Origin: an uncultured archaeon
Lineage (GTDB): Archaea; Aenigmatarchaeota; Aenigmatarchaeia; CG10238-14
Assembly: GCA_964392445.1 (NCBI GenBank)
Contig: CAYMPD010000001.1
Location: 61,030-125,029 of the forward strand
Length of the DNA: 64,000 nucleotides
Direction: 5' to 3'
The translations under genes and the position numbers were made by a program. This document shows, piece by piece, positions 4,779 through 56,823 of this stretch. Below the pieces are notes generated by a model, which was not told the origin of the DNA, did no database searches, and worked only from the letters and a program-made list of their open reading frames with translations. How positions within the stretch are numbered: the first letter of the stretch is position 1; each line of letters begins with the position of its first letter.

Positions 4779-5264
4779 ATGCCACCCAAAATCTGGAGAA
4801 GTGTAATGTATGGACTTTTCATTGGTACTACTATCTCTTCAGTAGTTCTTTTTGTTTTCAGAATTATTCCTATTTCTACAATTGGTATGATAATGATACT
4901 TTATCTTTATGCTGCTGTTGGTGGGATCACGGGTTATATTGCTCATAGGAAATTTGAGGATAGTTCTAATGTCCCCAGGGAAATAGAAAAGAAACCTGAA
5001 GAAAACCCTGATAACCCACCTCCAAAAGAAAAAGTTAATCCCACCCCAGTAAAACAGGAGATAATTAAAATCGAGAACTACAGACAAAAATTAGATGAAA
5101 TTAAAAACCTCAAAAGAACTTCTCTTATTCTTAAAGGGTTAGTAAATACTCGAAAAAGGTTAGAAGAGTTAAAAAAAGAAAGTAACTCTATTCTTGAAGA
5201 TAGTGTAGAAATAATGGACAATAAAAGTGCTGATTTGACTAAGAGTTATTTGAAGACTAGTTAG
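4779..5264 (+). CDS. Membrane protein (two N-terminal TM helices plus coiled-coil tail)
   Basis: Two hydrophobic stretches followed by a charged helical C-terminus. Confidence 0.6.
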   Translation: MPPKIWRSVMYGLFIGTTISSVVLFVFRIIPISTIGMIMILYLYAAVGGITGYIAHRKFEDSSNVPREIEKKPEENPDNPPPKEKVNPTPVKQEIIKIENYRQKLDEIKNLKRTSLILKGLVNTRKRLEELKKESNSILEDSVEIMDNKSADLTKSYLKTS

Positions 5265-6283
5265 CTGTTTGTCGCTCCTGGGGTTGGTGTATCATCTACT
5301 TCGAAATCATTTGTATCACTATCCGTATCTATTCCATTAGATATCCTTGCGGTCGATCTACCGTCCTCAGGAATGGGTGCATTATCTGATGCATCACCAT
5401 CATCAAAATCTCCATATGCTACTTGGTCTACAACCTCTGATAGCTCTCTTAGTATTATAACATCTCCGCCATCGTTTAAACCAAAACTGAAATCATCTCC
5501 TTTCACAAGTACCAAATACCCATTTTCCGGAATAACCATGCCATCTAAAGTGGTATTTCCACCCCCGCTACCATAAGTGGATCCTGTATTATCTTCAATT
5601 GTCCAACCAGTCAAATTAACCTCAGAACTTCCCTTATTGTATAATTCAATCCATTCATCTTCACCAGTGTTAGGATCTGAGACAAACTCATTAATTACCA
5701 CTCCTTTATTGCTCTCATAGCCTTTTTTCTTTGTAGATGGAAATTCAGACTCAGATTTTATTTGCTCCATTTTTTCGACTTCTTCTTGGAGTTCTTGTTC
5801 TACTCCGGCACAAACTTCCACAACATTCTCCTGATTTACACCCTCAAAGGTTTCGGTAACCTCACCCTTTTCCAAAACTTTAGTCAACTCTCCATTTGGA
5901 GTTGTACAAATCTGCTCAATATAACCTAAACTTCTTGTGATTTTAAATCGGTATTCATTTGTTGTTATTTTCCAAACCGTTTTTTCGGTATCTTCTTTGA
6001 CCACTGTTACTTTACCTGGTTTAGAGAGTTCCTGAAATACCTCCCCAGCAGAAATACGCATAGTAAATTTACCAAAGGGTGTTTCATAAGTCTTTTCGAA
6101 TTTTTCCGAACTAAAAATCTTTGACATTTTACTAGGAACACTTTCAACCTCACTTTCATCAGCCATATCCAAAACTAATTTACCCGTAGGAACAGAATCA
6201 CTTAACGGACCAGTGACAAGGAAAGGTATCGAAATAAGACCAGTTATAATCGAACTGATGATGACAATATCACTCAATGTCAT
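5261..6283 (-). CDS. Secreted/anchored lamin-tail-domain (LTD) protein
   Basis: N-terminal hydrophobic helix. C-terminal VVINEF...EWIELYN...VNLTGWTIED and PTPGATN motifs are typical of LTD. Start placed at ATG 6283. Confidence 0.72.
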   Translation of the reverse strand: MTLSDIVIISSIITGLISIPFLVTGPLSDSVPTGKLVLDMADESEVESVPSKMSKIFSSEKFEKTYETPFGKFTMRISAGEVFQELSKPGKVTVVKEDTEKTVWKITTNEYRFKITRSLGYIEQICTTPNGELTKVLEKGEVTETFEGVNQENVVEVCAGVEQELQEEVEKMEQIKSESEFPSTKKKGYESNKGVVINEFVSDPNTGEDEWIELYNKGSSEVNLTGWTIEDNTGSTYGSGGGNTTLDGMVIPENGYLVLVKGDDFSFGLNDGGDVIILRELSEVVDQVAYGDFDDGDASDNAPIPEDGRSTARISNGIDTDSDTNDFEVDDTPTPGATNS

Positions 6284-6673
6284 GCTAATAATTGAAAATG
6301 TTCCCTTATATAATTTTCTATCTAATATAAAATTTTTTAATATGTTATATCCTAATGTAAAATACATTAACTCCCTAAATCCCTAAAAAGTCGATTTTGA
6401 AGTCCTATTAGGAGTCCATATCTTTTAACCACTTTAAAGTAGCATTCAATTTAGCCCGTACCCCACTCTATCTCACACTCACTTTCAATCCGTGAGAGTT
6501 GTTCTATATTATATATTTTTTAAAACATATTTTACTTCTATCATATTTTTATTATATAATATAAAACATATTTTCTGATTATAGTTTAAGTTAACTTATT
6601 TTAAAATCTATATATTTTGATTAAACCGCCTGAACATATAAATACTTGGGAAAACTAATAATTATTGGATTGT

Positions 6674-6973
6674 ATGGCGGTAAAAGAAACTGAATTAACA
6701 AAGCTCTTCTTAAGGACTAAGCCTGTTAGAATGCTAATTGCTTTGAAGAAAGGTCCCAAATATTGTACCCAAATTTCAAAGGAAATAGACTGTACCTATT
6801 CTCATACAATAAAACTTTTGGACGAGTTGGAAACATTGAATCTAGTCACATTCAAAAAACAAGGAAGGATCAAAATTGTCAACCTAACAGAAAACGGCGA
6901 AGATCTTGCACATTCTATTGAAGGTACATTGATGAAATTGGCTAGAATCCGAGAGCAAAATAAGGAAGAGTGA
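6674..6973 (+). CDS. Winged-helix (MarR/ArsR-like) transcriptional regulator
   Basis: YCTQISKEIDCTYSHTIKLLDELETLNLV...GRIKIVNLTENG wHTH pattern. Confidence 0.78.
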   Translation: MAVKETELTKLFLRTKPVRMLIALKKGPKYCTQISKEIDCTYSHTIKLLDELETLNLVTFKKQGRIKIVNLTENGEDLAHSIEGTLMKLARIREQNKEE

Positions 6974-7124: not shown

Positions 7125-7711
7125 ATGATGACGGATAATACATCAGAAGTAAAATGCCCTACATGTCGAAAAACATTCAAAAAGACTAGATATAGAAAAA
7201 AATACTGTTCTAGAGAATGTGCTCAAATAGGGATTGCTAATAGACCAAGAACAGAGGCGCTTAAATATAAGGATAGATACTGTAAGTTTTGTGGAAATTT
7301 GTTTAGATCATCAAGAAGAGATCAAAAATTTTGTTCTAAAAGCTGCTATTATGATTATGTTAAACATACCAATAAGTTGAGAAGACGTAAAGGACCTAAC
7401 AAAGCGGAAAACATCTTATTAGGATAATAAAAGGACATGGTCTCCCTTTCAAATTTGTAGGGAATGGAGAATTCCATGTTGGGAAGAAAAATCCTGATTT
7501 TATCGGGATTGGTAAGCAAAAGTACAAAATAATAGAACTCTTCGGCGATTATTGGCATAAAAAGAAAAATATAAGATATCACAGAACAGAAGAGGGAAGA
7601 CAACTATATTATTGGAAAAGTGGTTATGATTGCTTAATAATATGGGAATCAGAATTAGAAAATGAAAAAAAGATTGTGAATAAAATTAAAAATTATCTAA
7701 GAGGTGATAAC
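7125..7711 (+). pseudogene. Zn-finger-repeat + Vsr/DUF559-like endonuclease split by a -1 frameshift near 7406-7420
   Basis: The first frame gives CPTC..YCSREC and CKFC..FCSKSC then PNKAE. The -1 frame (open from 7400) gives HLIRIIKGHGLPFKFVGNGEFHVGKKNPDFIG..KIIELFGDYWH..YDCLIIWESE, a Vsr-like PD-(D/E)XK pattern. No stop separates it from the downstream wHTH frame. Confidence 0.72.
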
Positions 7712-8065: not shown

Positions 8066-8358
8066 TATAGGGTAAGGGAACAATTTTTATGTCCGAAAAG
8101 GGGGTGTTTTTACCTTAAATTATATACTAATTTATAATAAATTTTGATATAAGTTTAGTTAAATAATAATTGAAAAGTATATTATTCATAATAACTAATT
8201 TTTGATACTTCCTAACATATTTACTAAAAAATATGTTTTATTTTATATAATAAGTATTCACACACAAAAGTGAGAGTTAAATTTTGGAAAGTAGAAATAA
8301 GTTTTAGTCGGAAAACACGAGGAGAAGGGTTATAAGCACATAAAATCTTAATTTAGTT

Positions 8359-8784
8359 ATGAAAATTCCTGAAAGTGTTGGCTGGGATAGAATAAACGAA
8401 GGATTGAAAAAACTAGATGTAGTTGGGATAAACCATTTCAGTCTTGGGTTACCTAAGGAAAGTGAGGGAACAAATCCTGAAAAGGTAGAACTTTTCTTCG
8501 AGGAAATGGGAAAAATTATTGGAATAGAGAATCCTAAAGAGGTGAAATCGACTGAGTGGTTCATCTACCCTGATGGTAAAACTCCAGGATATGAGCATCT
8601 ACTTTGGCCTGGTAAAAAAGTTTTTTATCATATTGAAATCGATGTTAAGGATTCTAATGAAAGAATAATGGAGGTTTTTCCTGAAGCATTTGAAGAAAGG
8701 CCCGGAATGTTTTGGTTAACAGTAGATAAGGGTTTCTTGGGAATACTGTGGGCGGTCATTATAACTAACAAGAGAGAAAAGTGA
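8359..8784 (+). CDS. Hypothetical protein, possibly VOC/glyoxalase-like fold
   Basis: INHFSL and YHIEIDVKD weakly resemble paired VOC motifs. The stop TGA lies inside the degenerate repeat at 8778. Confidence 0.5.
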   Translation: MKIPESVGWDRINEGLKKLDVVGINHFSLGLPKESEGTNPEKVELFFEEMGKIIGIENPKEVKSTEWFIYPDGKTPGYEHLLWPGKKVFYHIEIDVKDSNERIMEVFPEAFEERPGMFWLTVDKGFLGILWAVIITNKREK

Positions 8785-8788
8785 GGGT

Positions 8789-9166
8789 ATGAAGCTAATA
8801 AACAAGACCAAAAATAAAGTAATCGCAACAAAAATAATAGTAAGGAAGAGCAGGATAGGGTTAATGTTAGGACTGATCCCATACAAAACCAAAAACGAAT
8901 ACATCTACGATTATTTGAAGTTCAAAAAGTTCGGTAGAAAAGATGCTATGCTATTCAAAGTGAGAGGTAAAGGTGGGATTCATACATGGTTTATGAGTTT
9001 TCCGATAAGTGTTTTCTTCCTGGATAAGGATATGAAAGTAATTGATAAGGTTCAACTATATCCTTTTGAGAGATATAAACCAAAGAAAAGATATGAGTGT
9101 TTTGTTGAATTGGATGGTTCCTGGATAAATAAGATAAGGATTGGAGAGGAATTAGAACTAAAGTGA
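8789..9166 (+). CDS. DUF192 family protein
   Basis: GLMLG..AMLF..IHTWFMSFPISVFFLD motif. The stop TGA lies inside the 13-mer at 9160. Confidence 0.8.
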   Translation: MKLINKTKNKVIATKIIVRKSRIGLMLGLIPYKTKNEYIYDYLKFKKFGRKDAMLFKVRGKGGIHTWFMSFPISVFFLDKDMKVIDKVQLYPFERYKPKKRYECFVELDGSWINKIRIGEELELK

Positions 9167-9169
9167 GAG

Positions 9170-9388
9170 TTAATCCTTCAAACTTGGGAATCCTTCTAGG
9201 TTCTTTATATCGTAAATTTCGATTAGTTTTTTTCTGCCTTCCTTTGTTTTCGATAATTCCTTGTAAACTCTTTGGTGGTTTTGGAAAAGTGAGTTAATGA
9301 ATTGGGTGTGAATCTTTCTCCACTTATCTGGGTTATTTCTAACAAATTCTGCCCATCTTTCTATTTGATCTTGATGTGTTTCCCTCAT
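9170..9388 (-). CDS. Small helical protein, putative antitoxin/partner of the nucleotidyltransferase
   Basis: 72 aa, 4-nt overlap with the NTase gene. The stop TAA is supplied by the 13-mer. Confidence 0.6.
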   Translation of the reverse strand: MRETHQDQIERWAEFVRNNPDKWRKIHTQFINSLFQNHQRVYKELSKTKEGRKKLIEIYDIKNLEGFPSLKD

Positions 9389-9942
9389 AATCTCAACTTC
9401 TTAATCATTTGTTTGATCTTTTTTACTTCTTCTTCTTTTACTTTATCCTTGTATACCCTCCTCAAATACTCGGCGTCTTCCAAGTCTTTGGGGGATTTTA
9501 ATAAGTCTTCCTTAAAGGCTATATTCATGTTAATGGAACTAAACCATACATCTAAACCAGTTAAAGGTAATTTTTCTTTTGTTTCGAATTGATAGTTATC
9601 AAGTTCATCCTTCGCGAATTTAAGTTCAATTTCGGGTAAAGGGTTATCTTCACGGGCATACCTCACAGGGATATTACTATCCAAATAATCATAAATTTCT
9701 TCTAAATCAGGGCTTTGTATACAAGTAAATCCTTCTTCTACTAAATCTTTGTGTAATTTCTTAAAATTCTCATAGCCCATTCTCCGTATTATTATGTCTA
9801 TATCTTCTGTTCCCCGAGTTCTACCTGAGGCTATCACAACAAACCCAGACACTACTATGTACTCTACATGCTCCTCAAGTATTTCACAAAAATCGGAACA
9901 AAACTCATTCAATACATTCTTATCTGATATCTGCCTTTCCAT
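9385..9942 (-). CDS. Nucleotidyltransferase-superfamily protein (DUF6036/AbiE-like)
   Basis: YIVVSGFVVIASGRTRGTEDIDIII matches the G..A....G..R.T.DID pol-beta-type NTase motif. Confidence 0.7.
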   Translation of the reverse strand: MERQISDKNVLNEFCSDFCEILEEHVEYIVVSGFVVIASGRTRGTEDIDIIIRRMGYENFKKLHKDLVEEGFTCIQSPDLEEIYDYLDSNIPVRYAREDNPLPEIELKFAKDELDNYQFETKEKLPLTGLDVWFSSINMNIAFKEDLLKSPKDLEDAEYLRRVYKDKVKEEEVKKIKQMIKKLRL

Positions 9943-9986
9943 GATTATTACTAGAATTCCAGAAATTTATTCTTGAAAAGTGAGAG

Positions 9987-10613
9987 TTATTTCACTACTT
10001 TAACACTCTTAATTACAACATCTTCAGCAGGAACATTCCCGTACATACCTACATTGTGAGTTTTTACCTTAGCTATAGAATCAACAACGTCCATACCTTC
10101 AATCACTTTACCAAAAACAGCATAACCATAAGGATCATTACCTCCTGGATTAAGAAAATCATTATCAACTAGGTTAATGAAAAACTGGGAAGTTGCGGAA
10201 TCAGGGTTGTTTGTCCTTGCCATTGCTATAGTGCCTCTTTCATTTGTTAGTCCACTGTCCTTGGCTTCGTTCTTGATAGTTGAGTATTTCGTTTCTTTTT
10301 CAGTCATTCCAGGTTCAAATCCTCCGCCCTGTATCATAAATCCATCTATCACTCTGTGAAAGATTAGTCCATCATAAAACCTATTCTCGACATACTTGAG
10401 GAAATTCTCGGTTGTTTTAGGTGCTCTTTGTCCATCTAACTCCAAAACGATTGTCCCCTTATTCGTTACCATCTCGACATTGACCATACCCGAAACTTTG
10501 TTGTTAGAAATATTAATTAGTTTGTAACCGAAAAATGTAAGAACCACCAAAATTGTTATTAAACCTAGTATCAAATATTTTCTCTCTATCTGAATTTCCA
10601 CTGACATGAACAA
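9987..10613 (-). CDS. ppiA: Cyclophilin-type peptidyl-prolyl cis-trans isomerase with N-terminal TM anchor
   Basis: [39 protein letters not shown] and [10 protein letters not shown] motifs. Confidence 0.93.
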
Positions 10614-10647
10614 TATTTGAAAAATAGATTATTATTTTTTACCGAAA

Positions 10648-10749
10648 GTGAGAGTTAAACTAACAATTTTAGATTTAATTATTGCCTCTATAGGTCTTAT
10701 TTTATTAGGACTAGGATATATAGACCAATGTAATTGTGTGAGTATTTGA
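10648..10749 (+). CDS. Possible 33-aa membrane peptide starting at the GTG inside the 13-mer
   Basis: Hand translation MRVKLTILDLIIASIGLILLGLGYIDQCNCVSI gives one hydrophobic helix. No SD seen. Confidence 0.35.
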   Translation: MRVKLTILDLIIASIGLILLGLGYIDQCNCVSI

Positions 10750-10867
10750 TCAGGTGATAGACTGAAGGAACCCAGATAGATTCCTTTTCAGGTCCCTGAA
10801 AAGGGGATTTATATAGTTTCATCACCACCAAAATGCTTAATTTAGAGGTCATGTATATATTTCTTGT

Positions 10868-11749
10868 ATGAAAATTGTTATTTTAGGCTCCCCAGAAAGG
10901 AGAAAAAAAGACTTAGAACTCCTGAAAGACGCAAAAGGGGTTTTTGATAAAGCTTTATATGTTTCAATAGATTCCGTTAAGTTGGAGGTATCAGACGAAA
11001 TGAAAGTATCCTTCGAAAAGACTGATCTTTCAGATTTCGACGTAATTCTCCCTGTGCCCACATATGAACACAAAGAAACCTATTATATGTGTCTGAAAAT
11101 TCTTGAAAAAAGTTGTTATGTTCCATACAAGAGCGATGATTTCTTTTTACTCTGGAACAAACCACTTTTAATAAAGAAACTTCAAGAGAGTGATATTAAC
11201 GTGAGGAAAACAGTTGTAGTCGCATCTAATTATATACCCGAAAATGCTGTAAAAGAATTGAAATTGCCTATCATTGTTAATTCATATAAGGGGAAAGTTT
11301 TGGTCACCGACAAAAATACCCTTAAGGATGTTATGGATTTATTTAAAAAAGGTATAATGAATAGACTTGAGAAGCCTATATCGGCTAATAAGAGTATCTG
11401 GTGCTTTATTGTCGGTGACGAAGTTATTGGTTGTTATGAAAAAGTAGGTGATGAGAGAAAAAGAATGACTAAAGCCAGTTCGGATATTACTAAATTATCT
11501 AAAAGGATAAAATCCATTGTCAATACTGATTTCTGCATAATTAATTTCCTAGAAACTAAAGACAAAATAATCGTAAAAAATATTAGTGTGACACCAGATT
11601 TCCCGTTGTTTGAAAAAATCACAGGTAAAAACCTAGGCTTGAGTTTACTAATTTATGTTAAAAGCCAGATTGAAGAAGAAAAACTTCCTTTTATAACGAA
11701 ATTCATAATAGACGTTATGGATTTATTGAAAAGGTTGGTGAAACAATGA
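10868..11749 (+). CDS. Degenerate RimK-like ATP-grasp paralog
   Basis: N-terminus parallels the neighbouring RimK (KKDLELLKDAKGVFD..LSDFDVILP; WNKPLL). The Gly-rich loop (GSxGxG) is absent. Confidence 0.65.
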   Translation: MKIVILGSPERRKKDLELLKDAKGVFDKALYVSIDSVKLEVSDEMKVSFEKTDLSDFDVILPVPTYEHKETYYMCLKILEKSCYVPYKSDDFFLLWNKPLLIKKLQESDINVRKTVVVASNYIPENAVKELKLPIIVNSYKGKVLVTDKNTLKDVMDLFKKGIMNRLEKPISANKSIWCFIVGDEVIGCYEKVGDERKRMTKASSDITKLSKRIKSIVNTDFCIINFLETKDKIIVKNISVTPDFPLFEKITGKNLGLSLLIYVKSQIEEEKLPFITKFIIDVMDLLKRLVKQ

Positions 11750-12612
11750 AAATAGCGATATTGGGTAAAGTAAAAAGGAGTTACGAAGAAATAAAGATCA
11801 TAAAAGAAGCGAAGAAAGTTTTTAACTCTGTTTTATATTTACCTATACCAGAAGCGAGGATAGAGATAAATTCCGACTTCAGTGTTAAATTTAAGAACGA
11901 AGATTTGTCGGACTTTGACTGTATATTACCAAGGATTCCCCGAAGTTATAGGACATATGGATTCACGTTATTGTCAGCTCTTAAAGGCAAAACATTTGTG
12001 CCAATAGAGCCAATGTCCTTGTTCAACTGTCATAATAAATTCCTAACCCTCATGATACTGAATGAAGAGGGTTTACCTGTACCTAAAACATTACTATCCG
12101 AAAAGAGAAAAATCATCGAGGATTCCTTGGATGAAATAGGTTATCCAGTTGTAATGAAACTTCTCTACGGTTCCATGGGGAAAGGTGTAATGTTTGCAGA
12201 CGGCAAACAATCTGCTATAAGTTTCATGGACACACTTGAAAGATTCGACGAACCAATTTTCGTCGAGGAATTTGTTCCAAATAATGGAGAGGATATTAGA
12301 ATTTACATGGTAGATCATGAACCCATTGCTTGTATGAAGAGAGTGGCAAAAGAAGGGGAAAAAAGGTCTAATATTGGGATTGGGGGAAAAGGGGAAAAGT
12401 ACATATTGCCTGAAAAATACGAAGATCTGGTCCACAGTGCATCCAAGTCACTTGAAGCCAGGATTTGTGGCTTGGATTTGATGGAATCCAAGAAAGGACC
12501 CGTTTTTATTGAAGCTAATATCAACGCCCAATTCAAGGGACTAGAAGAAGCTACCAAAATCAACGTTGCAAAAATTATAATAGAATTTATGAAGAGCTGT
12601 GTGAAAGAGTGA
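11746..12612 (+). CDS. rimK: RimK-family alpha-L-glutamate ligase (ATP-grasp)
   Basis: NKFLT, PVPKT, PVVMKLLYGSMGKGV, EEFVP..GEDIRI, RSNIGIGG and EANIN motifs. Confidence 0.85.
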   Translation: MKIAILGKVKRSYEEIKIIKEAKKVFNSVLYLPIPEARIEINSDFSVKFKNEDLSDFDCILPRIPRSYRTYGFTLLSALKGKTFVPIEPMSLFNCHNKFLTLMILNEEGLPVPKTLLSEKRKIIEDSLDEIGYPVVMKLLYGSMGKGVMFADGKQSAISFMDTLERFDEPIFVEEFVPNNGEDIRIYMVDHEPIACMKRVAKEGEKRSNIGIGGKGEKYILPEKYEDLVHSASKSLEARICGLDLMESKKGPVFIEANINAQFKGLEEATKINVAKIIIEFMKSCVKE

Positions 12613-12616
12613 AAGA

Positions 12617-13453
12617 ATGGATTTTCTTAGATTTAGTGACTTAAAATCAATGGATAGTTTTCTAGAGGAGATTAGTGTCAAAAGAGAAGACAAAATGGAG
12701 TATTACAAATTTAGCAAGTTCGAGGAGAACAGAATTCTTTTTACAGCCGAGCACAGCAAAATCGTGAAATTTCAGACCTCTAAATTCCCAAGACCCAATT
12801 GTATCGAATTAGGTGATAGAAATACTGACAAAATCGCTAAACTGATGTCCTACAAACTTAAATCTGGGTATCTTATTTTCGGGTACCCGAGAACGGAAGT
12901 TGATGCATCAAGATCTTTCAGAACTTTGGGTGGAGATGAAAAAATAAAGGCTGCAGTTACAAGAAAAAAAGAATTATTAGGAAAAGTGGATGTAAAGATA
13001 CACCAAAATGAGAAATATTTGTCAAACCTTCAGAAATACCATTCTATAGTTGAAAAATCGAACCCTAAGATAATAGCGTCCATCCATGGTATACAGAGGA
13101 GACACAAAAATGATGTAGTTTTTGGGTTAGGTGAGAATTCTGAGTATGTGGGTGGGGCGAAGGAAGAGAAAAGGTTAATGAATATACTCGAAAAAAATCT
13201 TGAAGAAAATGGTCAATCAGACTTGAAATTCAGAGTTTCAAAAAAATATTATACTGGTAAAAGGAATTTTGTTTTACATCGAAATATCCTCGAGTTCAAT
13301 AGAAGTAATCCAGAAAAAAGGTACGGCATGCAGATAGAATTTAATAGGAGAACCAGAGTGGGAGATAAATCCAAAGAGTTCATAAAAAAGAAATATCAAA
13401 TTGTATGTCAAATAATAGCGGATTCAATTTTAGAGTGGGGAAAACCTAAATGA
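12617..13453 (+). CDS. Putative N-formylglutamate amidohydrolase-like (Zn exopeptidase fold) hydrolase
   Basis: FTAEHS, PRTEVDASR, IASIHG and GMQIEF resemble the FGase-superfamily H / PR.xD.NR / (D/S)xH(G/S) / QIE motifs. Confidence 0.5.
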   Translation: MDFLRFSDLKSMDSFLEEISVKREDKMEYYKFSKFEENRILFTAEHSKIVKFQTSKFPRPNCIELGDRNTDKIAKLMSYKLKSGYLIFGYPRTEVDASRSFRTLGGDEKIKAAVTRKKELLGKVDVKIHQNEKYLSNLQKYHSIVEKSNPKIIASIHGIQRRHKNDVVFGLGENSEYVGGAKEEKRLMNILEKNLEENGQSDLKFRVSKKYYTGKRNFVLHRNILEFNRSNPEKRYGMQIEFNRRTRVGDKSKEFIKKKYQIVCQIIADSILEWGKPK

Positions 13454-13638
13454 GTCGATCCAAATAGATTCCTATTCAGGTAAGGGACCCAAAGAAGCCT
13501 AGATGCTCAGAAATGATGGGATTATTTCAATGGAGGGTGTGAAAAAGTATTATGATAAAAAACCATGAGTATCAAAAAAGTGAGAGTTAAATACAAAAAA
13601 TTTAACTGATAAAACCAAATTAATTCAGAGGTGAGTTC

Positions 13639-14235
13639 ATGGGAGATGTATGGCAAAGGACATTATTTATGGTTAAACCTGATGGTGTTAAAAGAGGGTT
13701 AGTGGGAGAGTGTTTTAGAAGAGCAGAGAACGCTGGATTAAGTGTTATAGCAATGAAAATGATCCATCCAACAAGAGAACAGGCGGATAGACATTATCCA
13801 AGTGAGGAAGATGATAAAGACTGGTTCCTAAAGGTAGCCGAGAAAGGAAGAAAAGGATACGAGAAAAGAGGTTTAGAATTTCCTTACGATGATATGGAAT
13901 ATGCCAGAAACATCAAAAAATGGTTAGTTGATTACTTATCTTCTGGTCCTGTTGTTGCTTCGGTTTTAGAAGGTCCAAATGCGATTAGTATGGTTAGGAA
14001 GATTTGTGGAGCAACGGAGCCTGCTCAAGCGGAAATAGGTACAATAAGGGGAGATTTCTCGGTTGATAGTTACAAACTGGCAAATAAACTAGAAAGACCA
14101 CTCAAGAACATAGTTCATGCAGCATCCAGTCCTAAAGACGCGGAGAAAGAGATTAAAGTTTGGTTTAGTGAAGATGAAATAATGGAATATAAGAGAGCGG
14201 AAGAAGGTGTGATGTTCGATCCAATCGAAAAGTGA
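13639..14235 (+). CDS. ndk: Nucleoside diphosphate kinase (long form with insertion)
   Basis: RTLFMVKPDGVKRGL, SGPVVA, GTIRGDF and NIVHAASS motifs. SD GAGGTGAG. Confidence 0.93.
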   Translation: MGDVWQRTLFMVKPDGVKRGLVGECFRRAENAGLSVIAMKMIHPTREQADRHYPSEEDDKDWFLKVAEKGRKGYEKRGLEFPYDDMEYARNIKKWLVDYLSSGPVVASVLEGPNAISMVRKICGATEPAQAEIGTIRGDFSVDSYKLANKLERPLKNIVHAASSPKDAEKEIKVWFSEDEIMEYKRAEEGVMFDPIEK

Positions 14236-14248
14236 GACTTCACAGGGT

Positions 14249-15166
14249 AAAATCCTCGTCACTAGTTACAAAAATCCAGACTTAGACGGAACTGCATGTA
14301 TGGTTGGTTATTCTGAATTGCTTAGAAAGAAAGGTGAGGATGCTAGTCCAGGTTATTTTGGAAATCTTCAAAGGGAGACTAAGTATCTTCTTAAGAAATT
14401 CCGTATCTCTAGACCTAAGAAGGGTGAGGATCTAATCGAAAAGTGTGATAAGGTTGTAGTAGTTGACAATGTTAACCCCATTGGTTTATCGGAAAAAATA
14501 GACCTTGAAAAGGTCGTGGAAGTTATCGATCACCATTATTCTGAAAAGAGACTTTTGAAAGAATATCCTAATGCTAAAGGGGAGATAGAAGAGGTTGGAG
14601 CGGCAGCAACATTAATAGTTGAAAAGTATATGGAATCTGAAATACCGATCGACAGAGATCCTGCAATCTTGCTTTACAGTGGCATTATTTCCAATACCTT
14701 GAATTTCCAATCAAATACAACAACTGAAAGGGATAAGAAAGCTGCGAAATGGTTGAGAAAGTTAATTGATATCCCTAAAACTTTTGCAAGAGATATGTTC
14801 GCCTCGAAATCGGATCTAAGTGATAAGAAAATTTATGATGTGTTAACTGGTGATTTGAAAGAACTGAAAGATGATTCTCTTTATATTGCACAACTAGAGA
14901 TAATTGATTTAGAAAAAACAGTGAGAGAAGGGAAAGAGGAAATAACCAAAGCGCTCAAGACGATTAAAAAAGAAAAAAGTGGAAAATATGTCTTCCTAAC
15001 GGGAATGGATCTCGAGAAAGGATTCAATCTCTTTTTGGTAGTGGATGATAAAAGTAAGGAACTTCTTGAGAAAGCTCTAAATGTTAAATTTGTTAATAAT
15101 ATAGCCAGGCGAGAAGGATTAATCATGAGAAAGGAAATAATACCAATAATTGAAAAATACTTGTGA
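14249..15166 (+). CDS. ppaC: Mn-dependent family II inorganic pyrophosphatase (DHH/DHHA2), conserved N-terminus lacks an in-frame start codon
   Basis: In-frame KILVTSYKNPDLDGTAC lies upstream of the track ATG (14300). VVVVDN, VIDHH, GIISNT and GLIMRKEII motifs. Confidence 0.88.
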   Translation, partial: KILVTSYKNPDLDGTACMVGYSELLRKKGEDASPGYFGNLQRETKYLLKKFRISRPKKGEDLIEKCDKVVVVDNVNPIGLSEKIDLEKVVEVIDHHYSEKRLLKEYPNAKGEIEEVGAAATLIVEKYMESEIPIDRDPAILLYSGIISNTLNFQSNTTTERDKKAAKWLRKLIDIPKTFARDMFASKSDLSDKKIYDVLTGDLKELKDDSLYIAQLEIIDLEKTVREGKEEITKALKTIKKEKSGKYVFLTGMDLEKGFNLFLVVDDKSKELLEKALNVKFVNNIARREGLIMRKEIIPIIEKYL

Positions 15167-15178
15167 AAAGTGAGAGTT

Positions 15179-15655
15179 ATGAAACCAGGTAAAGACTTCA
15201 TTGGCTTAGGAGTAGGAGCAATAATACAAAACGAAAAGGACCAAGTCCTACTTCTTAAAAGACCAGATACAATAACCCCTGATAGAACAACATCTGGAAT
15301 GTGGTCAGTTCCTGGGGGTGAAGTTAAGTTTATGGAAAAAGTTGAAGATGCACTCAAACGAGAAGTGAGAGAAGAGATAGGAGTGGAAGTTGAAATAATT
15401 AAACCTATAGAATATCATGATCAGATACTAGATGAATCCCAAGTACACTGGCATTGTCAATCATTTCTTTGCAAAATTAAAGAGGGTAAACCTGAAATAC
15501 ATGAACCAAGTAAATGTGAGGATTTGAAGTGGTTTGATACTGATATTCTCCCCGAGAAGTGTGGTATAGCCCATATTGTTGTTCCTCTGTACAAGCTTGG
15601 CTGGATTAGTAAGAGTGAGTATGAAAGGAGATTAAGAAACACCCCCGAGAGTTGA
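15179..15655 (+). CDS. NUDIX hydrolase
   Basis: Nudix box GGEVKFMEKVEDALKREVREEIG. The ATG overlaps the last base of the 13-mer. Confidence 0.9.
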   Translation: MKPGKDFIGLGVGAIIQNEKDQVLLLKRPDTITPDRTTSGMWSVPGGEVKFMEKVEDALKREVREEIGVEVEIIKPIEYHDQILDESQVHWHCQSFLCKIKEGKPEIHEPSKCEDLKWFDTDILPEKCGIAHIVVPLYKLGWISKSEYERRLRNTPES

Positions 15656-15660
15656 TTAGT

Positions 15661-16194
15661 ATGGATATAGAAATTTTCAAGAAAAATAAAAAGTCTCTCC
15701 TAGTCATGGGAATTGGTATTATAATAGGGATGATCGGGCTTTTTCTGTTCCCAACTTTTCTAATCTTTACTATTTTTCTTGTAGGTACTGGAATCTTAAA
15801 CTTCGTACAGAGTAGGATGGAACTTCCATTTGACCTGACACCCTCCTTAGCTATCTTGATTCTCTTCTCGATAAAATTAGGATTTCTTGAGGGGATGATA
15901 TTTCTGATATTGGGTTCTATAATACCCGGGATACTGGGAGGGGGATTTAATCACATGACTTTATTTTTCTTCCTTTTAGCTATGGGTATAAGTTATCTGG
16001 GATCATCATCTTTAATTGGGGACTTGAGAATCTATGGTATTGTCCTTATTGTGATTCAAGGCGTCTTTAGTTATCTAATCATAAAGCTCTTTTCGGTTGA
16101 TCCTACGGATATTTTATCTGTTTTTCTAGGGTTCTTTGTAAACATTAGTTATTTTTTAGTTTTAAGTGAGTTAATAGCGAGCGTATTGGTTTGA
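15661..16194 (+). CDS. Multi-pass membrane protein
   Basis: About 6 hydrophobic segments. Confidence 0.7.
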   Translation: MDIEIFKKNKKSLLVMGIGIIIGMIGLFLFPTFLIFTIFLVGTGILNFVQSRMELPFDLTPSLAILILFSIKLGFLEGMIFLILGSIIPGILGGGFNHMTLFFFLLAMGISYLGSSSLIGDLRIYGIVLIVIQGVFSYLIIKLFSVDPTDILSVFLGFFVNISYFLVLSELIASVLV

Positions 16195-16231
16195 ATGATA
16201 CTTATTTCTTTATTTTCCTAAAAAGTGAGAC

Positions 16232-16417
16232 ATGAGTTATTGGTATTGTTTGGATTGCAGAAAAGTCGTGGATACTTATATGGATATTTTCAAAGCTTTC
16301 TCGCTTTGCTGTAAAGAGTGTGGGAGTACTAGGTTGTTGAAATTGAATAAGATGGATGAGAAAGAGTTTGATAAATTTGTTGAAGAATTCAAAAGGAAGA
16401 CTGGGGAGGTTGAGTGA
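16232..16417 (+). CDS. Small zinc-ribbon protein
   Basis: CLDC and CKEC pairs in 61 aa. The ATG follows the degenerate repeat at 16222. Confidence 0.6.
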   Translation: MSYWYCLDCRKVVDTYMDIFKAFSLCCKECGSTRLLKLNKMDEKEFDKFVEEFKRKTGEVE

Positions 16418-16418
16418 A

Positions 16419-16823
16419 GTGAAGGTTTATGTTGCGTCTAGATTTAATAATCAGCAAAAAGTCAAAGAAATTTATAGGGAACTGATTGAAAATGGGTTTG
16501 AAATAACTGTTGATTGGACCAAACATAAAAAAGTGAAGCCTTATGAAAAGAATCCTAAAATGTCTGAGAAATATTCAAAGGAAGATATCGAGGGGGTAAA
16601 AGATTCTGATATTTTAATTTTGTTGACTACTGAAAACCCTGGTAAAGGCATGTTTGTAGAAATGGGGGCTGCTATAATAGTAAATATACTTACAGGAAAA
16701 CCAAAGATTTACATAATTGGAGATTATAATAAACAATCCCTATTTTACTTTCATCCGAACGTTAAGCGCCTAAACACGATAGAAGATGTTATTGAAGACT
16801 TGAAGAAAAGTGAGGTTTCATGA
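16419..16823 (+). CDS. Nucleoside 2-deoxyribosyltransferase-like / N-glycosidase protein
   Basis: KVYVAS, DIEGVKDSDIL and GMFVEMGAA motifs. GTG 16419 has SD GGAGGT. Confidence 0.78.
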   Translation: MKVYVASRFNNQQKVKEIYRELIENGFEITVDWTKHKKVKPYEKNPKMSEKYSKEDIEGVKDSDILILLTTENPGKGMFVEMGAAIIVNILTGKPKIYIIGDYNKQSLFYFHPNVKRLNTIEDVIEDLKKSEVS

Positions 16824-17185
16824 CCAAAGAAATGACCTTAAAAGAACTCCAAAAGGTTCAGAAAGAGTTCGATGAAAAATACTTTAGTAAATACTGGATT
16901 GATAAGGAAGATATAGATCAGAAGATTAACTTTCTCAAAGACATGGCCATAGCCTTAACAGGAGAATTAGGTGAATTCGCAAACATCATCAAAAAAGTGA
17001 GTAGGGACAGAAAGAATCTTGGTAAAGAACCTAATAAGGAAAATATCCAGAAACTCAAGGAGGAATTGACGGATTGTTTTATTTACCTTATAATCCTATC
17101 CAACATACTCGAAATGGACATAGAAAAACAGTATCTAAAGAAGACAAATCTAAATCACAAAAGATTTCAGAAGTACTTAAAATAG
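16820..17185 (+). CDS. MazG-like all-alpha nucleotide pyrophosphohydrolase
   Basis: LTGELGEFANIIKK and EELTDCFIYL ExxE/ExxD motifs. Confidence 0.82.
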   Translation: MTKEMTLKELQKVQKEFDEKYFSKYWIDKEDIDQKINFLKDMAIALTGELGEFANIIKKVSRDRKNLGKEPNKENIQKLKEELTDCFIYLIILSNILEMDIEKQYLKKTNLNHKRFQKYLK

Positions 17186-17203
17186 AAGTGGAAAAAGAAA
17201 AAA

Positions 17204-17314
17204 CTACTTACTAAATATCATACTTCCTATTAATGGTATTAGAGCTGCTCCGAAGAGTAAGCCCATTACCAATAATGTTCCACCAACTTGAGTGCTGGCA
17301 AATTGTAATGACAT
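17204..17314 (-). CDS. Possible 36-aa membrane peptide
   Basis: Hand translation MSLQFASTQVGGTLLVMGLLFGAALIPLIGSMIFSK, below the ORF-track cutoff. Confidence 0.45.
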   Translation of the reverse strand: MSLQFASTQVGGTLLVMGLLFGAALIPLIGSMIFSK

Positions 17315-17498
17315 AACTAATTACTTTCATAGTATGATTTAAAAGCTTTGGAGGTATTTTATTACAGAAATACTTAAATTACCCTTCTAAAAACCACTTT
17401 TGTTGGTATTTAATATATGTTAAAATGAAGTGAAAATTAAATTGAAATTTGGGAAAAGTTAAATATTTATATTACAAAATCCTATATAGTAAGATTAT

Positions 17499-17669
17499 AT
17501 GGAAGAAAATTTTATCAGAAGGGTGAGAAAAAGTGGTTCAAGCCACTGTATTAATATTCCAGTAGAGATAGTAAATTTACTCAACCTGGATGATGGAGAA
17601 TTAGTAAAAGTTACAATTAAAAAAATACGAAAGGAGGTGAGTGATGATGCCGAAACACAAAGTGATTGA
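17499..17669 (+). CDS. Small AbrB/SpoVT-type DNA-binding protein (56 aa)
   Basis: Hand translation contains RKSGSSHCINIPVEIVNLLNLDDGELVKVTI, an AbrB signature. Not in the ORF track. Confidence 0.7.
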   Translation: MEENFIRRVRKSGSSHCINIPVEIVNLLNLDDGELVKVTIKKIRKEVSDDAETQSD

Positions 17670-17886
17670 ATACGGGACTGAAACGTGCCCCTGGTGTCAT
17701 AGAGCAAGAGAATTCTTTGAGGAGAATGAGATTAAGTACAAGTACATAGATGTGGGGAAGGACAGAAAAGCAGCAAAAGAAATGATTGAGAAGACAGGTC
17801 AAAGAGGAGTACCAGTGATTGAAATAGATGGGGAATTTATTGTTGGGTTTGATGAGAAAAAGATTAGGGAGAAGTTAGGTCTGTAA
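17644..17886 (+). CDS. Glutaredoxin / NrdH-like redoxin
   Basis: CPWC active site, GQRGVPVI and VGFD motifs. SD GGAGGTGA. Confidence 0.88.
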   Translation: MMPKHKVIEYGTETCPWCHRAREFFEENEIKYKYIDVGKDRKAAKEMIEKTGQRGVPVIEIDGEFIVGFDEKKIREKLGL

Positions 17887-43361: not shown

Positions 43362-45810
43362 CTATTCCACCTTTTTGTATTTTTGATGGATCTAAACCAT
43401 CTTCTCCTGGGACAAATTGGACTATATTATTGCTACTGTCCCGAACGGTTTTATCATAAGTAACCTTCAAGTCTTTCAAAGCCGCGATTAATCTTCTTTC
43501 CAAATAACCACTATGCCTGGTTTTCAAAGATTTATCCATCAGCCCCTCTCTACCATTCATAGCATCAAAGAAGAATTCAAATGGACTAAGTCCTTGTTTG
43601 TAACCATTACTAACAAATCCCTTTGATTCTATAGATTTATCACCTCTTTTGAAATGTGAGAATGTTCTATTATAGAAACCTATGTTAATTCTTTGACCCT
43701 TCACTGTTTCTTGACCTATCATTGCTGATGACTGGACTATATTCACTAAACTTCCTCTAGCCCCACTTTTAGCCATGATATTGATATTATTTTCCGGCAT
43801 ATCTTCTTTGACGATTTGGGTAACTTCATTTAACATATCAGCAAGTTCTTTTTGTATTAACGTCTCTAATGTTTCTTCTGATGTTTTACCTATTATCAAA
43901 TCGACCTTACCATCTTTAAAGTTCTTAATTATTTTATCGGTTTTAGACTTAACTTTATCTAATAATTTACCCACTTTCTCACGCGCCTTATCACTTAAAT
44001 CGGTGTCTGAAATGGAAAGACTAAATCCGTATAAAGATAAAATTTCAATTGAAAGTTTTGACATGTTAAACAGGAATTCCTTAGCATAAACATGCCCATA
44101 CTCCTTATCGATGTAATCAAGTATCTTACCCTTAAAAGCCGCAAGTCCTCTTTCATCTATTGTACCTTTAACCAACTGACCATCTTTAATTACTACTTCA
44201 TCGCTCTTACCCTTATACTCGAAATTAAGATCATCAGGTAAAAATAAGGAAAATATTTCTTTTCCCGATAATGTTTTTTTGTTAGGAATTTCTATGTCAG
44301 GATCACATGCTCTTACTATATTTACAACATCTTTACGTTTGAATTTTTTATCCCCATTGGTCAAAATATAAAATCCTGTTATATAATCATTTACAACCCC
44401 TATTATTGGTCCACTAAATCTAGGACTTCTGATTTGAGTGGTAACTGAAGCTAGAAGCTCGGTCTCGGTTTGCGACTCTTTGGTCTGAGGGACATGTATA
44501 TTCATCTCATCCCCATCAAAATCTGCGTTATAAGGAGGACAAACAACTGGATTTAGTCTGAAAGTCTTGTAAGGCATTACTCTCACTCTATGACCCATCA
44601 TACTCATTCTGTGAAGTGAGGGTTGTCTGTTGAAAATTACCCAATCACCATCACTTAGTTGTTTTTCTACAGTATATCCGGGTTCAAGTTCTTCTGCTAT
44701 CTCTTTTTTATTGATTTCCGATAGTTTCTTTCTTCTACCATCAGGTCTTATTATGTAATTAATAGTTGGCCAATTAGGATAATTCTCTACTAACTCTTTT
44801 AGATATTCTGAATTCCTCTCTTCCACGACAAGAGGTATTGTTAGTTCCCTTGCAATCTCTAGAGGAACACCAATCTCATCTATATCTAACATAGGATCTG
44901 GGCTAATTACGGTTCTTGCAGAAAAGTCCACTCTTTTCCCAATTAAATTGTGTCTAAATCTACCTTCCTTCGATTTTAATCTTTGTGTTAAAGTTTTCAA
45001 TACTCTCCCTGATCGATGCCTAGCTGGAGGGACACCAGAAATTCCATTGTCTATGTAAGTCGCTACATGATACTGTAAAAGTTCCCATAGGTCTTTGATT
45101 ATAAAATCAGGCGCTCCTAAGTCTATATTCTCCCTTAATCTTTTGTTTATCCTTACTATATCCACCAATTTATGAGTTAGATCGTCCTCAGATCTCTCAC
45201 CTGATTCTAATGTAATAGAAGGTCTCATGGTCACAGGAGGTACTGGAAATAAACTTATTATGAAGTGTTCGGGTCTAGTATTTCTTATCCCCATATAAGC
45301 CAAATCTTCATCCGATATATTTTCTAATCTTTTTCTAACTTCTGTCTGGGTTAGTGTTTTTCCACCTTCGAGATGAGTTGTTGGTTTAATGAACTTGATT
45401 TTCTTTTGTTTTTCATTACAATATGGACAGGTTGTTTTGGAAAGTCTTCTCAATTTTCTCAAGGATTTTTTACTTTTTCTAAATTTATCTAACCTCTCTT
45501 CAGTAACAAGTATCCTATTACACTTCCTACAAGTTAACCTAAGGATATTGTATATTAGTTTAGCATAATTAACATTCACCACTGGTCTCGTGAGCTCCAA
45601 ATAACCAAAGTGACCCGTACATTCACCAACTGAACCCCCACATCTTCTACATCTCAGCCCAGGATCAATTGTTCCTAGTCTTGGATCCATCAAACCTCCT
45701 TCAACTGGATACCCTTCCTGATCATACAAATCAGTCTTACTTATTCTAGCTGCTGCCATTTTCTTGATAACTTCTGGCTTCATAACCCCGAAAACTATTT
45801 TATCTATCAT
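43327..45810 (-). CDS. rpoA1: RNA polymerase subunit A' (Rpo1N)
   Basis: GHFGYLEL, GKRVDFSARTVI, NRQPSLH and catalytic YNADFDGDEMN motifs. Confidence 0.98.
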   Translation of the reverse strand: MIDKIVFGVMKPEVIKKMAAARISKTDLYDQEGYPVEGGLMDPRLGTIDPGLRCRRCGGSVGECTGHFGYLELTRPVVNVNYAKLIYNILRLTCRKCNRILVTEERLDKFRKSKKSLRKLRRLSKTTCPYCNEKQKKIKFIKPTTHLEGGKTLTQTEVRKRLENISDEDLAYMGIRNTRPEHFIISLFPVPPVTMRPSITLESGERSEDDLTHKLVDIVRINKRLRENIDLGAPDFIIKDLWELLQYHVATYIDNGISGVPPARHRSGRVLKTLTQRLKSKEGRFRHNLIGKRVDFSARTVISPDPMLDIDEIGVPLEIARELTIPLVVEERNSEYLKELVENYPNWPTINYIIRPDGRRKKLSEINKKEIAEELEPGYTVEKQLSDGDWVIFNRQPSLHRMSMMGHRVRVMPYKTFRLNPVVCPPYNADFDGDEMNIHVPQTKESQTETELLASVTTQIRSPRFSGPIIGVVNDYITGFYILTNGDKKFKRKDVVNIVRACDPDIEIPNKKTLSGKEIFSLFLPDDLNFEYKGKSDEVVIKDGQLVKGTIDERGLAAFKGKILDYIDKEYGHVYAKEFLFNMSKLSIEILSLYGFSLSISDTDLSDKAREKVGKLLDKVKSKTDKIIKNFKDGKVDLIIGKTSEETLETLIQKELADMLNEVTQIVKEDMPENNINIMAKSGARGSLVNIVQSSAMIGQETVKGQRINIGFYNRTFSHFKRGDKSIESKGFVSNGYKQGLSPFEFFFDAMNGREGLMDKSLKTRHSGYLERRLIAALKDLKVTYDKTVRDSSNNIVQFVPGEDGLDPSKIQKGGIDVKKISDQIFR

Positions 45811-49585: not shown

Positions 49586-49700
49586 TCCCCTCGGCCGGGG
49601 TTGAACCAGCAACCTCACGGTTTCTACGAACGCTTACTGGTGATGAATGCAAAACAGCAAACATCTACAGCCGTGCGCTCTACCATTGAGCTACAAGGGG
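49586..49700 (-). tRNA. tRNA-Tyr(GUA) with a 43-nt canonical intron (49622-49664)
   Basis: C1:G72 and A73 archaeal Tyr identity elements, CACGG/CCGTG anticodon stem, GTA anticodon. Confidence 0.92.
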
Positions 49701-56562: not shown

Positions 56563-56823
56563 TTATATTCTAATTGCCTCAAGTAGATTTGGTCTACCTG
56601 GGCCTTTGTTGCTTACAACTACTTCTATGTCTTTATCTTCAATGAAATCAAAAACGTGAGAGTTAGATCTGGAATAAACATACTTAGAGAAAGATATTTT
56701 TTCTATGTCGGAATTTCTTTTGAGAATCTTCTTGATTAGTCTAACGCTGGCAAACTTTCTTAAATGAATGATCTTAACCGCAGGAGAGATTTTTTGGACA
56801 TCTTGATAACTAGAAATAGACAA
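56563..56823 (-). CDS. Small hypothetical protein, DUF1699-like
   Basis: Size and IIHLRKF..LIKKIL..IEKISF pattern resemble DUF1699. Start uncertain. Confidence 0.45.
   Translation of the reverse strand: MSISSYQDVQKISPAVKIIHLRKFASVRLIKKILKRNSDIEKISFSKYVYSRSNSHVFDFIEDKDIEVVVSNKGPGRPNLLEAIRI

Follow-up and report, generated by a model that had tools for sequence, protein, structure and literature searches.

The DNA analysed here, referred to as the window, is a stretch of 64,000 nucleotides (nt) from contig CAYMPD010000001.1 of an uncultured archaeon of the Aenigmatarchaeota (assembly GCA_964392445.1). The assignment to this DPANN group agrees with a tRNA that bears an intron, a 16S rRNA gene of archaeal type and the named relatives returned from databases. 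Between positions 8359 and 17185 it carries an array of about 10 small housekeeping gene units that are split from one another by copies of a short motif, the 13-mer AAAGTGAGAGTTA (Table 1). The six exact copies of the motif, all on the + strand, are confined to positions 8267–15179. Dinucleotide shuffles give an expectation of 0.01 exact copies per window, and none of 100 shuffles reached six. Throughout the source assembly (1,215,121 bases in 54 contigs, 94.9% complete, 34% G+C) no exact 13-mer was found beyond these six. The original prediction, made by eye from the window alone, had proposed six copies, no others and a near-zero expectation. All of this holds for the window, and the absence of other copies holds for the whole assembly too. 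Shorter forms behave differently from the 13-mer: the 8-mer AAAGTGAG occurs 60 times in the genome, 30 times per strand, against a composition-based estimate of about 47. The 8-mer is thus not enriched genome-wide and the signal lies in the long form at a single locus.

Four degenerate copies, matching at 10 or 11 of the 13 positions, were found at further gene junctions, where they had first been noted. Our search adds a 12/13 copy at 8957–8969 within the DUF192 gene, where it encodes the peptide FKVRGKG. Since relatives keep the same coding copy, this one is probably a chance product of a conserved peptide and not a functional site. The remaining copies are tightly interlocked with the genes. 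In the table of open reading frames (ORFs), the TGA of the motif serves as the stop codon of the + strand ORFs ending at 8784, 9166 and 14235, its TTA as the TAA stop of the − strand ORFs ending at 9170 and 9987, and ATGs follow copies at 8789, 15179, 16232 and 16820, exactly as first described. No hairpin-type inverted repeats were found to accompany the copies, which bears out the earlier remark that the attC hairpins of integrons are lacking, and the flanks show no conservation except A-rich bases. Three array genes lie on the − strand, the units carry TATA-like boxes, and the backbone housekeeping genes are conserved across a family. Most of the gene labels proposed at the outset were recovered by Pfam; the labels 'VOC-like' and 'NTase pair' found no support in Pfam or NCBIfam searches.

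Table 1. Motif copies, genes and promoter features at and around the array. Positions are those of the window, except where a locus handle precedes them.
Feature	Position	Strand	Remarks
Lamin-tail-domain gene	5261-6367	-	Other side of divergent spacer from winged-helix gene
Inverted pair of motif-like half-sites	6473-6501	AAAGTGAGTGTGA on -, GTGAGAGTTG on +	Divergent spacer between lamin-tail-domain gene and winged-helix gene
Small winged-helix protein gene, 102 amino acids (aa)	6665-6973	+	ArsR/AspA/AF1382-like fold; candidate motif binder
Second small winged-helix protein gene, 129 aa	7676-8065	+	Directly upstream of motif copy 1
TATA box TTTATATA	8242-8249	+	Exactly 17 nt upstream of motif copy 1
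Motif copy 1, exact	8267-8279	+	Array head
141-aa gene	8359-8784	+	
Degenerate copy, 10/13	8778-8790	+	Overlaps stop of 141-aa gene; DUF192 ATG 1 nt on
DUF192 gene	8789-9166	+	Pfam
Motif copy 2, exact	9160-9172	+	Overlaps stops of DUF192 (+) and 72-aa gene (-)
Two-gene pair (72 aa, 185 aa)	9170-9942	-	
Motif copy 3, exact	9977-9989	+	35 nt from ATG of 185-aa gene (-); overlaps stop of cyclophilin (-)
Cyclophilin gene	9987-10613	-	Pfam
Motif copy 4, exact	10645-10657	+	32 nt from ATG of cyclophilin (-); GTG opens small ORF
Small ORF and RimK-like operon	10648-13453		Two RimK-like ATP-grasp proteins by Pfam
Motif copy 5, exact	13577-13589	+	ndk ATG 62 nt downstream
ndk	13639-14235	+	NDK, Pfam
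Degenerate copy, 11/13	14229-14241	+	ndk/ppaC junction; overlaps ndk stop
ppaC, DHH phosphatase	14249-15166		DHH/DHHA2, Pfam
Motif copy 6, exact	15167-15179	+	Final TA overlaps first two bases of NUDIX ATG (15178-15180)
NUDIX gene	15179-15655		Pfam
Membrane protein gene	15661-16194		
Degenerate copy, 10/13	16222-16234	+	Precedes Zn-ribbon gene
Zn-ribbon gene	16232-16417		
Nucleoside deoxyribosyltransferase gene	16422-16823		Pfam
Degenerate copy, 10/13	16807-16819	+	Precedes MazG-like gene
MazG-like gene	16820-17185		MazG/dUTPase-like, Pfam
Stacked-site protein genes, among others	L038:4188-4877, L034:4516-5169, L033:2204-2941	-	

Conservation of the motif and its place at predicted promoters

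The exact 13-mer is present in 16 of 40 relatives, where a reversed control is found at a level near zero. A 12-mer form occurs in 64 of the 118 genomes of the order, in about 145 copies as compared with about 30 for the reversed control, and in 127 of the 274 genomes of the class. Within the order, 31 contigs have at least two copies, and on every one of the 31 all copies lie on a single strand; in other orders copies are found in both orientations, some of them as inverted pairs. Genera without an exact 12-mer have the variants AAAGTGAGAGTGAGAGTTA and GAAGTGAGGGTTG at the same place, and in one 12-mer-free family of another order GTGAGAGTT/C is kept near the same gene. Because these variants stand where the 12-mer is lacking, we take the conserved core to be GTGAGAGTT. 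A metagenome scan for close strains returned only relatives at 76–79% identity. In the literature we found the motif only as chance primer matches, and no relevant work on promoter motifs of Aenigmarchaeota.

In the genome of the window, about 10 core copies fall in intergenic DNA, six of them being those of the array. The others lie upstream of the winged-helix gene, at an S13 operon, in a palindrome on contig C50 and at window position 56653. The S13 site (contig C6, about position 43675, − strand) places the core between the TATA box and the ATG of an S13-S4 ribosomal-protein operon; it is kept in degenerate form by two relatives of the same family and is absent from family f2. On contig C50, a small contig, the core forms part of a near-perfect palindrome, TGAGAGTT-N6-AACTCTCA, at about position 2546, following a 298-aa gene.

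The position of the motif relative to TATA boxes was then compared among sites. At the array head, where the TATA box is a perfect one, the 17-nt spacing between it and motif copy 1 is repeated in 7 related genomes, and it places the predicted transcription start within the motif. All fetched loci together have 122 intergenic core sites; counted from the core, TATA-like hexamers are most frequent at −30 to −26 (25 hits) and nearly absent from −25 to −1. The sites that make up this peak belong to several non-orthologous promoters in several orders; with the usual archaeal spacing, the predicted start would therefore fall at the G of the motif GTG. At other sites the motif is followed after 0–10 nt by a TATA box, with a leaderless-type ATG about 25 nt from that box, and further sites stand directly before an ATG. 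Of 132 intergenic cores, 87 are directed towards a co-oriented gene start no more than 300 nt away. The site upstream of ndk recurs in relatives at a spacing comparable to that of the window. An inverted half-site was seen 5–15 nt upstream of the motif at about 7 of the 122 sites and downstream, at those spacings, at none. One of these pairs is that at 6473–6501, whose − strand copy follows a TATA-like box by about 19–22 nt.

Small winged-helix genes beside the array

In all relatives the neighbours of the array head are two small winged-helix genes. The first encodes a protein of 102 aa with weak winged helix-turn-helix matches in Pfam and weak Sso10a matches in NCBIfam. Its AlphaFold2 model (pLDDT, the predicted local distance difference test score, 88) shows a winged helix followed by a long C-terminal helix, and the nearest solved folds returned by Foldseek are AF1382, ArsR/SmtB-type repressors including SqrR/SmtB, AspA of pNOB8 and Sso10a-2. 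The recognition helix, T44 Y45 S46 H47 (TYSH), is invariant in a class-wide alignment. The gene is present as a single copy in 104 of the 118 genomes of the order, including 33 of the 34 high-quality ones. Where gene and motif share a contig, the 12-mer lies downstream of the gene on the same strand, at a distance of 0–39 kb, in 30 of 31 genomes. Other orders have motif copies on both sides of the gene and in both orientations, and in two of their genomes a copy abuts its start codon.

The second winged-helix gene (129 aa) always lies between the first one and the first motif copy in the family of the window. In three other families (f2, f3 and f6), the gene for a protein of 200–250 aa bears 2–4 stacked, co-oriented promoter copies of the motif that are 37–171 nt apart. 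This protein is amphipathic at its N-terminus (MGLIxxxKK) and has a winged helix at its C-terminus; it also contains a linker of low-complexity repeats, a coiled coil and a conserved segment, LGLAAGY. The genome of the window encodes no homologue of it, and a comparison with the 129-aa protein revealed no homology between the two.

Two further features were noted around these genes. Inverted repeats of 26 bp, identical at 25 of 26 positions (6549–6574 and 8228–8253), bracket both winged-helix genes, and the right arm holds the TATA box of the array-head promoter. Between the two genes, a Zn-ribbon ORF (7125–7427) is followed, in another frame, by the remnant of a Vsr/PD-(D/E)XK-like endonuclease that has no start codon and runs in frame into the 129-aa gene. 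This region, 7125–7675, is an insertion that is missing in relatives, where the two winged-helix genes are about 160–200 nt apart, and it looks like a decayed gene of the homing-endonuclease type.

Reshuffling of gene units at the motif

When the window was compared with a congener, homology blocks were found to begin and end at motif copies. Positions 9160–9989 (motif, two-gene pair, motif) form one block and 9976–10523 (motif, cyclophilin) another, and the order of these two is reversed in the congener. A third block corresponds to 10645–10735, and the block 13577–17836 has its beginning precisely at a motif copy. Neither the 141-aa gene nor the RimK operon is present in the congener. Other relatives have the NUDIX gene in the first slot, and shorter arrays are also found. 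The slot before ndk is filled differently among relatives, by the RimK operon, by a 112-aa gene on the − strand or by a gene for a 209-aa membrane protein, and it may also be empty; the 112-aa gene, which takes the place of the RimK operon in a congener, has no homologue in the genome of the window. At one left flank, the 35-nt promoter region of the 185-aa gene (−), a single motif copy joins four right-hand units in four genomes, and each of these units is also seen behind other left flanks. To the right of the array the same four congeners are collinear over 20 kb, and the backbone order of DUF192, ndk, Zn ribbon and MazG is stable across the family. The RimK operon is inserted 78 nt downstream of a motif copy and was found to carry no motif of its own in other genomes.

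Every joint between the reshuffled units carries one motif copy. Recombination between the copies is therefore likely, and it would be the simplest route to such joints. Every junction in the array holds a copy, so that any rearrangement that spares genes and promoters must end beside one. Breakpoints at the motif are thus partly expected for any gene-preserving rearrangement and carry limited weight. The entry of the RimK operon without a motif and the stability of the backbone order likewise limit the conclusion, and we regard the cassette-like behaviour as real but ambiguous.

Several features of individual units are recorded here in their own right. The RimK-like operon is flanked by a 22-nt direct repeat, at 10772–10793 and 13460–13481 (91% identical), the left copy of which belongs to a hairpin with 10-bp arms; the repeat may be a trace of the route by which the operon was inserted. 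A small hydrophobic ORF, LDLIIASIGLILLGLGYI, opens at the motif GTG both in the window (10648–10749, 33 codons) and in locus L014 (4756–4839 on the − strand, 27 codons), and its DNA is 90% identical between congeners, above the level of neighbouring genes. For ppaC, no ATG, GTG or TTG is found near the conserved N-terminus (KILV..., from 14249), and the first listed start, at 14300, would remove the DHH metal-binding motif. The frame of ppaC is open back through the ndk stop, one base offset from ndk. The arrangement is the same in one congener, and in another a TTG stands three codons upstream; initiation may be non-canonical, or there may be re-initiation or a frameshift. Outside the array, a tRNA of 115 nt found by Rfam and not called by ARAGORN (49586–49700) adjoins the 5S rRNA gene and is consistent with an intron-bearing archaeal tRNA.

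A proposed promoter element and its alternatives

We give a probability of about 0.5 to the reading that the motif serves a small winged-helix protein as a promoter or operator element throughout the class, and that its direct repeats have secondarily become joints for modular rearrangement. With the conserved core, extended in this order to the 13-mer, the motif would be a cis-regulatory DNA site at or near promoters. In one recurrent class of sites it would lie across the transcription start, with the TATA box about 28 nt upstream, a position where the operators of archaeal repressors are usually found. The site would probably be bound by a small sequence-specific DNA-binding protein, for which the 102-aa winged-helix protein is the best candidate: across the class, its recognition helix has been kept as strictly as the motif. 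Regulation, in either sense, would in this family reach units gathered in one array beside the 102-aa gene, DUF192, ndk, the pyrophosphatase, NUDIX, MazG and cyclophilin included. Because the same 13–17 bases recur directly at each junction, recombination between the copies has probably also made them the joints at which units were swapped, lost or replaced among relatives.

Operators that overlap the transcription start are known for archaeal repressors, among them the sites of MDR1, Phr, NrpR and the TrmB family. The motif resembles these in being a short conserved site that lies downstream of TATA across the predicted start and is repeated in several promoters, and in its proximity to a candidate regulator gene, with linkage to a small winged-helix protein. 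It differs in that it is mostly a single non-palindromic element of 9–13 bases and not a dyad, with a binder that is only a candidate, and in that it is also found upstream of TATA boxes, at the 3' ends of genes and in stacked direct arrays.

A number of observations weigh against a promoter element of this kind. The pooled profile does not show a single TATA geometry, the −30 to −26 spacing being restricted to a subset of sites, and all promoter positions used here are predictions from sequence. As many as 27 of the 132 intergenic cores, including those at 9160 and 9977, face the 3' end of a gene on the opposite strand, a placement that a simple operator model does not explain. More than 90% of sites are non-palindromic and lack the dyad symmetry suited to a dimeric winged-helix binder; dimers of the ArsR/MarR type usually read dyads. 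Membership of the putative regulon differs between families, as ndk and S13 lack the site in family f2. As to the candidate binder, conservation of the 102-aa protein extends to families in which the 12-mer is rare, and within the order of the window its gene has no motif upstream, except for the variant in this genome.

The motif might act instead at the RNA level, as the 5' terminus of transcripts that have a short leader or none and in which its GUG opens a mini-ORF (Met-Arg-Val...), or as an internal signal for termination and re-initiation or for processing. Such a role would agree with the start predicted at the G of GTG, with the short MRV... frames after many copies and with the hydrophobic ORF of 33 or 27 codons that is conserved from the motif GTG in two genomes. 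It would also agree with the use of the motif TGA to end upstream genes that are followed by ATGs within 0–8 nt, with the absence of ATG, GTG or TTG near the conserved N-terminus of ppaC just after a copy, and with the location of all copies on the strand of the main transcription direction. However, the mini-ORFs have anything between 4 and 47 codons, with no conservation past the motif, and the real start codon follows at spacings from 0 to over 300 nt. Stacked copies and inverted pairs suit DNA binding better. The genome has a canonical Shine-Dalgarno sequence (GAGGTGA), the 3' end of 16S rRNA is canonical in relatives, and Rfam, which reports only 5S rRNA and tRNAs in the window and nothing in six related loci, has no match at the sites. 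We therefore consider an RNA-level role unlikely.

The original prediction had offered a gene-capture system whose recombinase is encoded elsewhere, or else a locus-specific protein-binding motif. Dedicated site-specific recombination would imply a cassette array, other than an integron, whose motif-bounded units are excised and inserted by a recombinase with its gene elsewhere. The genome has two tyrosine recombinases, both on other contigs: PF00589 matches are found on contigs C32 and C7 and not on C1. The copies of the array are all direct repeats whatever the orientation of the genes, at each junction a single copy separates flanks that come from different units, and the congeners show units that are swapped or relocated and a pre-ndk slot with at least four contents, all within collinear flanks. 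To this extent, the idea that units are reordered, gained and lost at motif joints was right. On the other hand, no recombinase gene lies beside the array in any fetched locus, and no site with attC-like secondary structure is seen. Copies are stacked 37–171 nt apart with nothing between them in other families, and they occur in both orientations in other orders. The backbone of housekeeping genes is stable across the family, the acquired RimK operon is motif-free here and elsewhere, and one class of sites keeps a fixed spacing to TATA. Dedicated recombination thus seems to us quite improbable. Protein binding, the second of the two early proposals, is the better supported, with the correction that the motif is conserved across the class and is not specific to the locus. 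None of the findings that the original prediction had named as refuting it was made: the motif is not spread genome-wide, pairing with 16S rRNA does not account for it, and gene order across the copies is not conserved.

Known systems of mobile units provide a partial parallel. Like the integrons (IntI, attI, attC), the array consists of small units with a short, co-oriented site between them that overlaps stop and start codons, and relatives differ in which units they have and in what order. Integron cassettes are mostly promoterless, co-oriented accessory genes that vary between strains. Unlike them, the units of the array have predicted promoters of their own, lie on both strands and have housekeeping content, and elsewhere the site is stacked free of cassettes. 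Neither an adjacent integrase nor an attC hairpin of 57–141 bp is present, and an integron was rejected on these grounds. Exchange of modules across joints that each carry a short conserved repeat is also known from repetitive extragenic palindromic (REP) sequences and bacterial interspersed mosaic elements (BIME) and from pdif modules. The repeat described here differs in being direct, 13 bp long and without an Xer-type dyad, and no transposase or gene similar to those of REP-associated tyrosine transposases (RAYTs) was found.

A further alternative is a centromere-like or domain-organising function, in which the copies would not be operators of single genes but would load or organise a winged-helix protein, AspA-like or of the chromatin type, that spreads on DNA. 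The heptad arrays of Omega of the pSM19035 family and the sites of pNOB8 AspA are short repeats that act as both operators and centromere. By its fold, the 102-aa protein is about as close to AspA, the centromere binder, and to Sso10a-2 as to ArsR repressors, and polar arrays of direct repeats occupy one chromosomal neighbourhood in nearly all genomes. The motif shares with the Omega and AspA systems its short non-palindromic repeats in direct or inverted arrays, a small dimeric protein as putative binder, and promoter control that would be combined with another DNA transaction. In contrast to those systems, the copies in the window are hundreds to thousands of bases apart at a chromosomal locus, and no partition ATPase is seen. 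No ParA/ParB-type partner was seen in the loci read, the sites track promoters and gene starts, and the single cdc6 gene lies on another contig, so that only a small chance remains for this explanation.

A Shine-Dalgarno variant pairing with the 3' end of 16S rRNA, which the several copies 3–8 nt before an ATG might suggest, can be dismissed: the 16S 3' ends, taken from four relatives since the 16S gene of the window's genome is cut at a contig end, read GGATCACCTCCT, canonical and capable of pairing at most as GUGA/UCAC, the genome-wide upstream signal is GAGG/GGTGA at −14 to −9, AAAGTGAG shows no strand bias and a count near the composition estimate, and many copies lie away from any co-oriented start. 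Two other candidates were rejected. Origin recognition boxes of a replication origin, which cluster beside orc1/cdc6 around an AT-rich unwinding element and are usually inverted, do not fit direct copies spread over 8.5 kb of genes in a genome with a single Cdc6_C match, on contig C3. A recognition element (BRE) for an alternative transcription factor B (TFB), which would adjoin TATA on its upstream side, does not fit a 95%-complete genome with one TFB gene only and a variable TATA spacing.

To our knowledge, gene regulation in DPANN archaea is almost unstudied, and these archaea cannot be grown alone. Our analysis yields an element of 9–13 bases that is exact across a class, together with a candidate binder, whose recognition helix is invariant, and a set of putative target promoters. 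The putative targets include housekeeping genes of the nucleotide pool and pyrophosphate, an operon for ribosomal proteins and a second winged-helix gene, the one with the stacked sites, which makes this a directly testable candidate regulon. A bolder idea, which we also hold to be unlikely, is that the 13-mer is the crossover site of an undescribed, integrase-independent shuffling of whole transcription units, in which a site bound by a winged-helix protein doubles as a joint. If so, modules of promoter plus gene would be exchanged, lost and captured at one chromosomal array. With one copy per joint and unit orders that differ among relatives, the array offers a natural case for studying repeat-driven modular rearrangement in reduced genomes.

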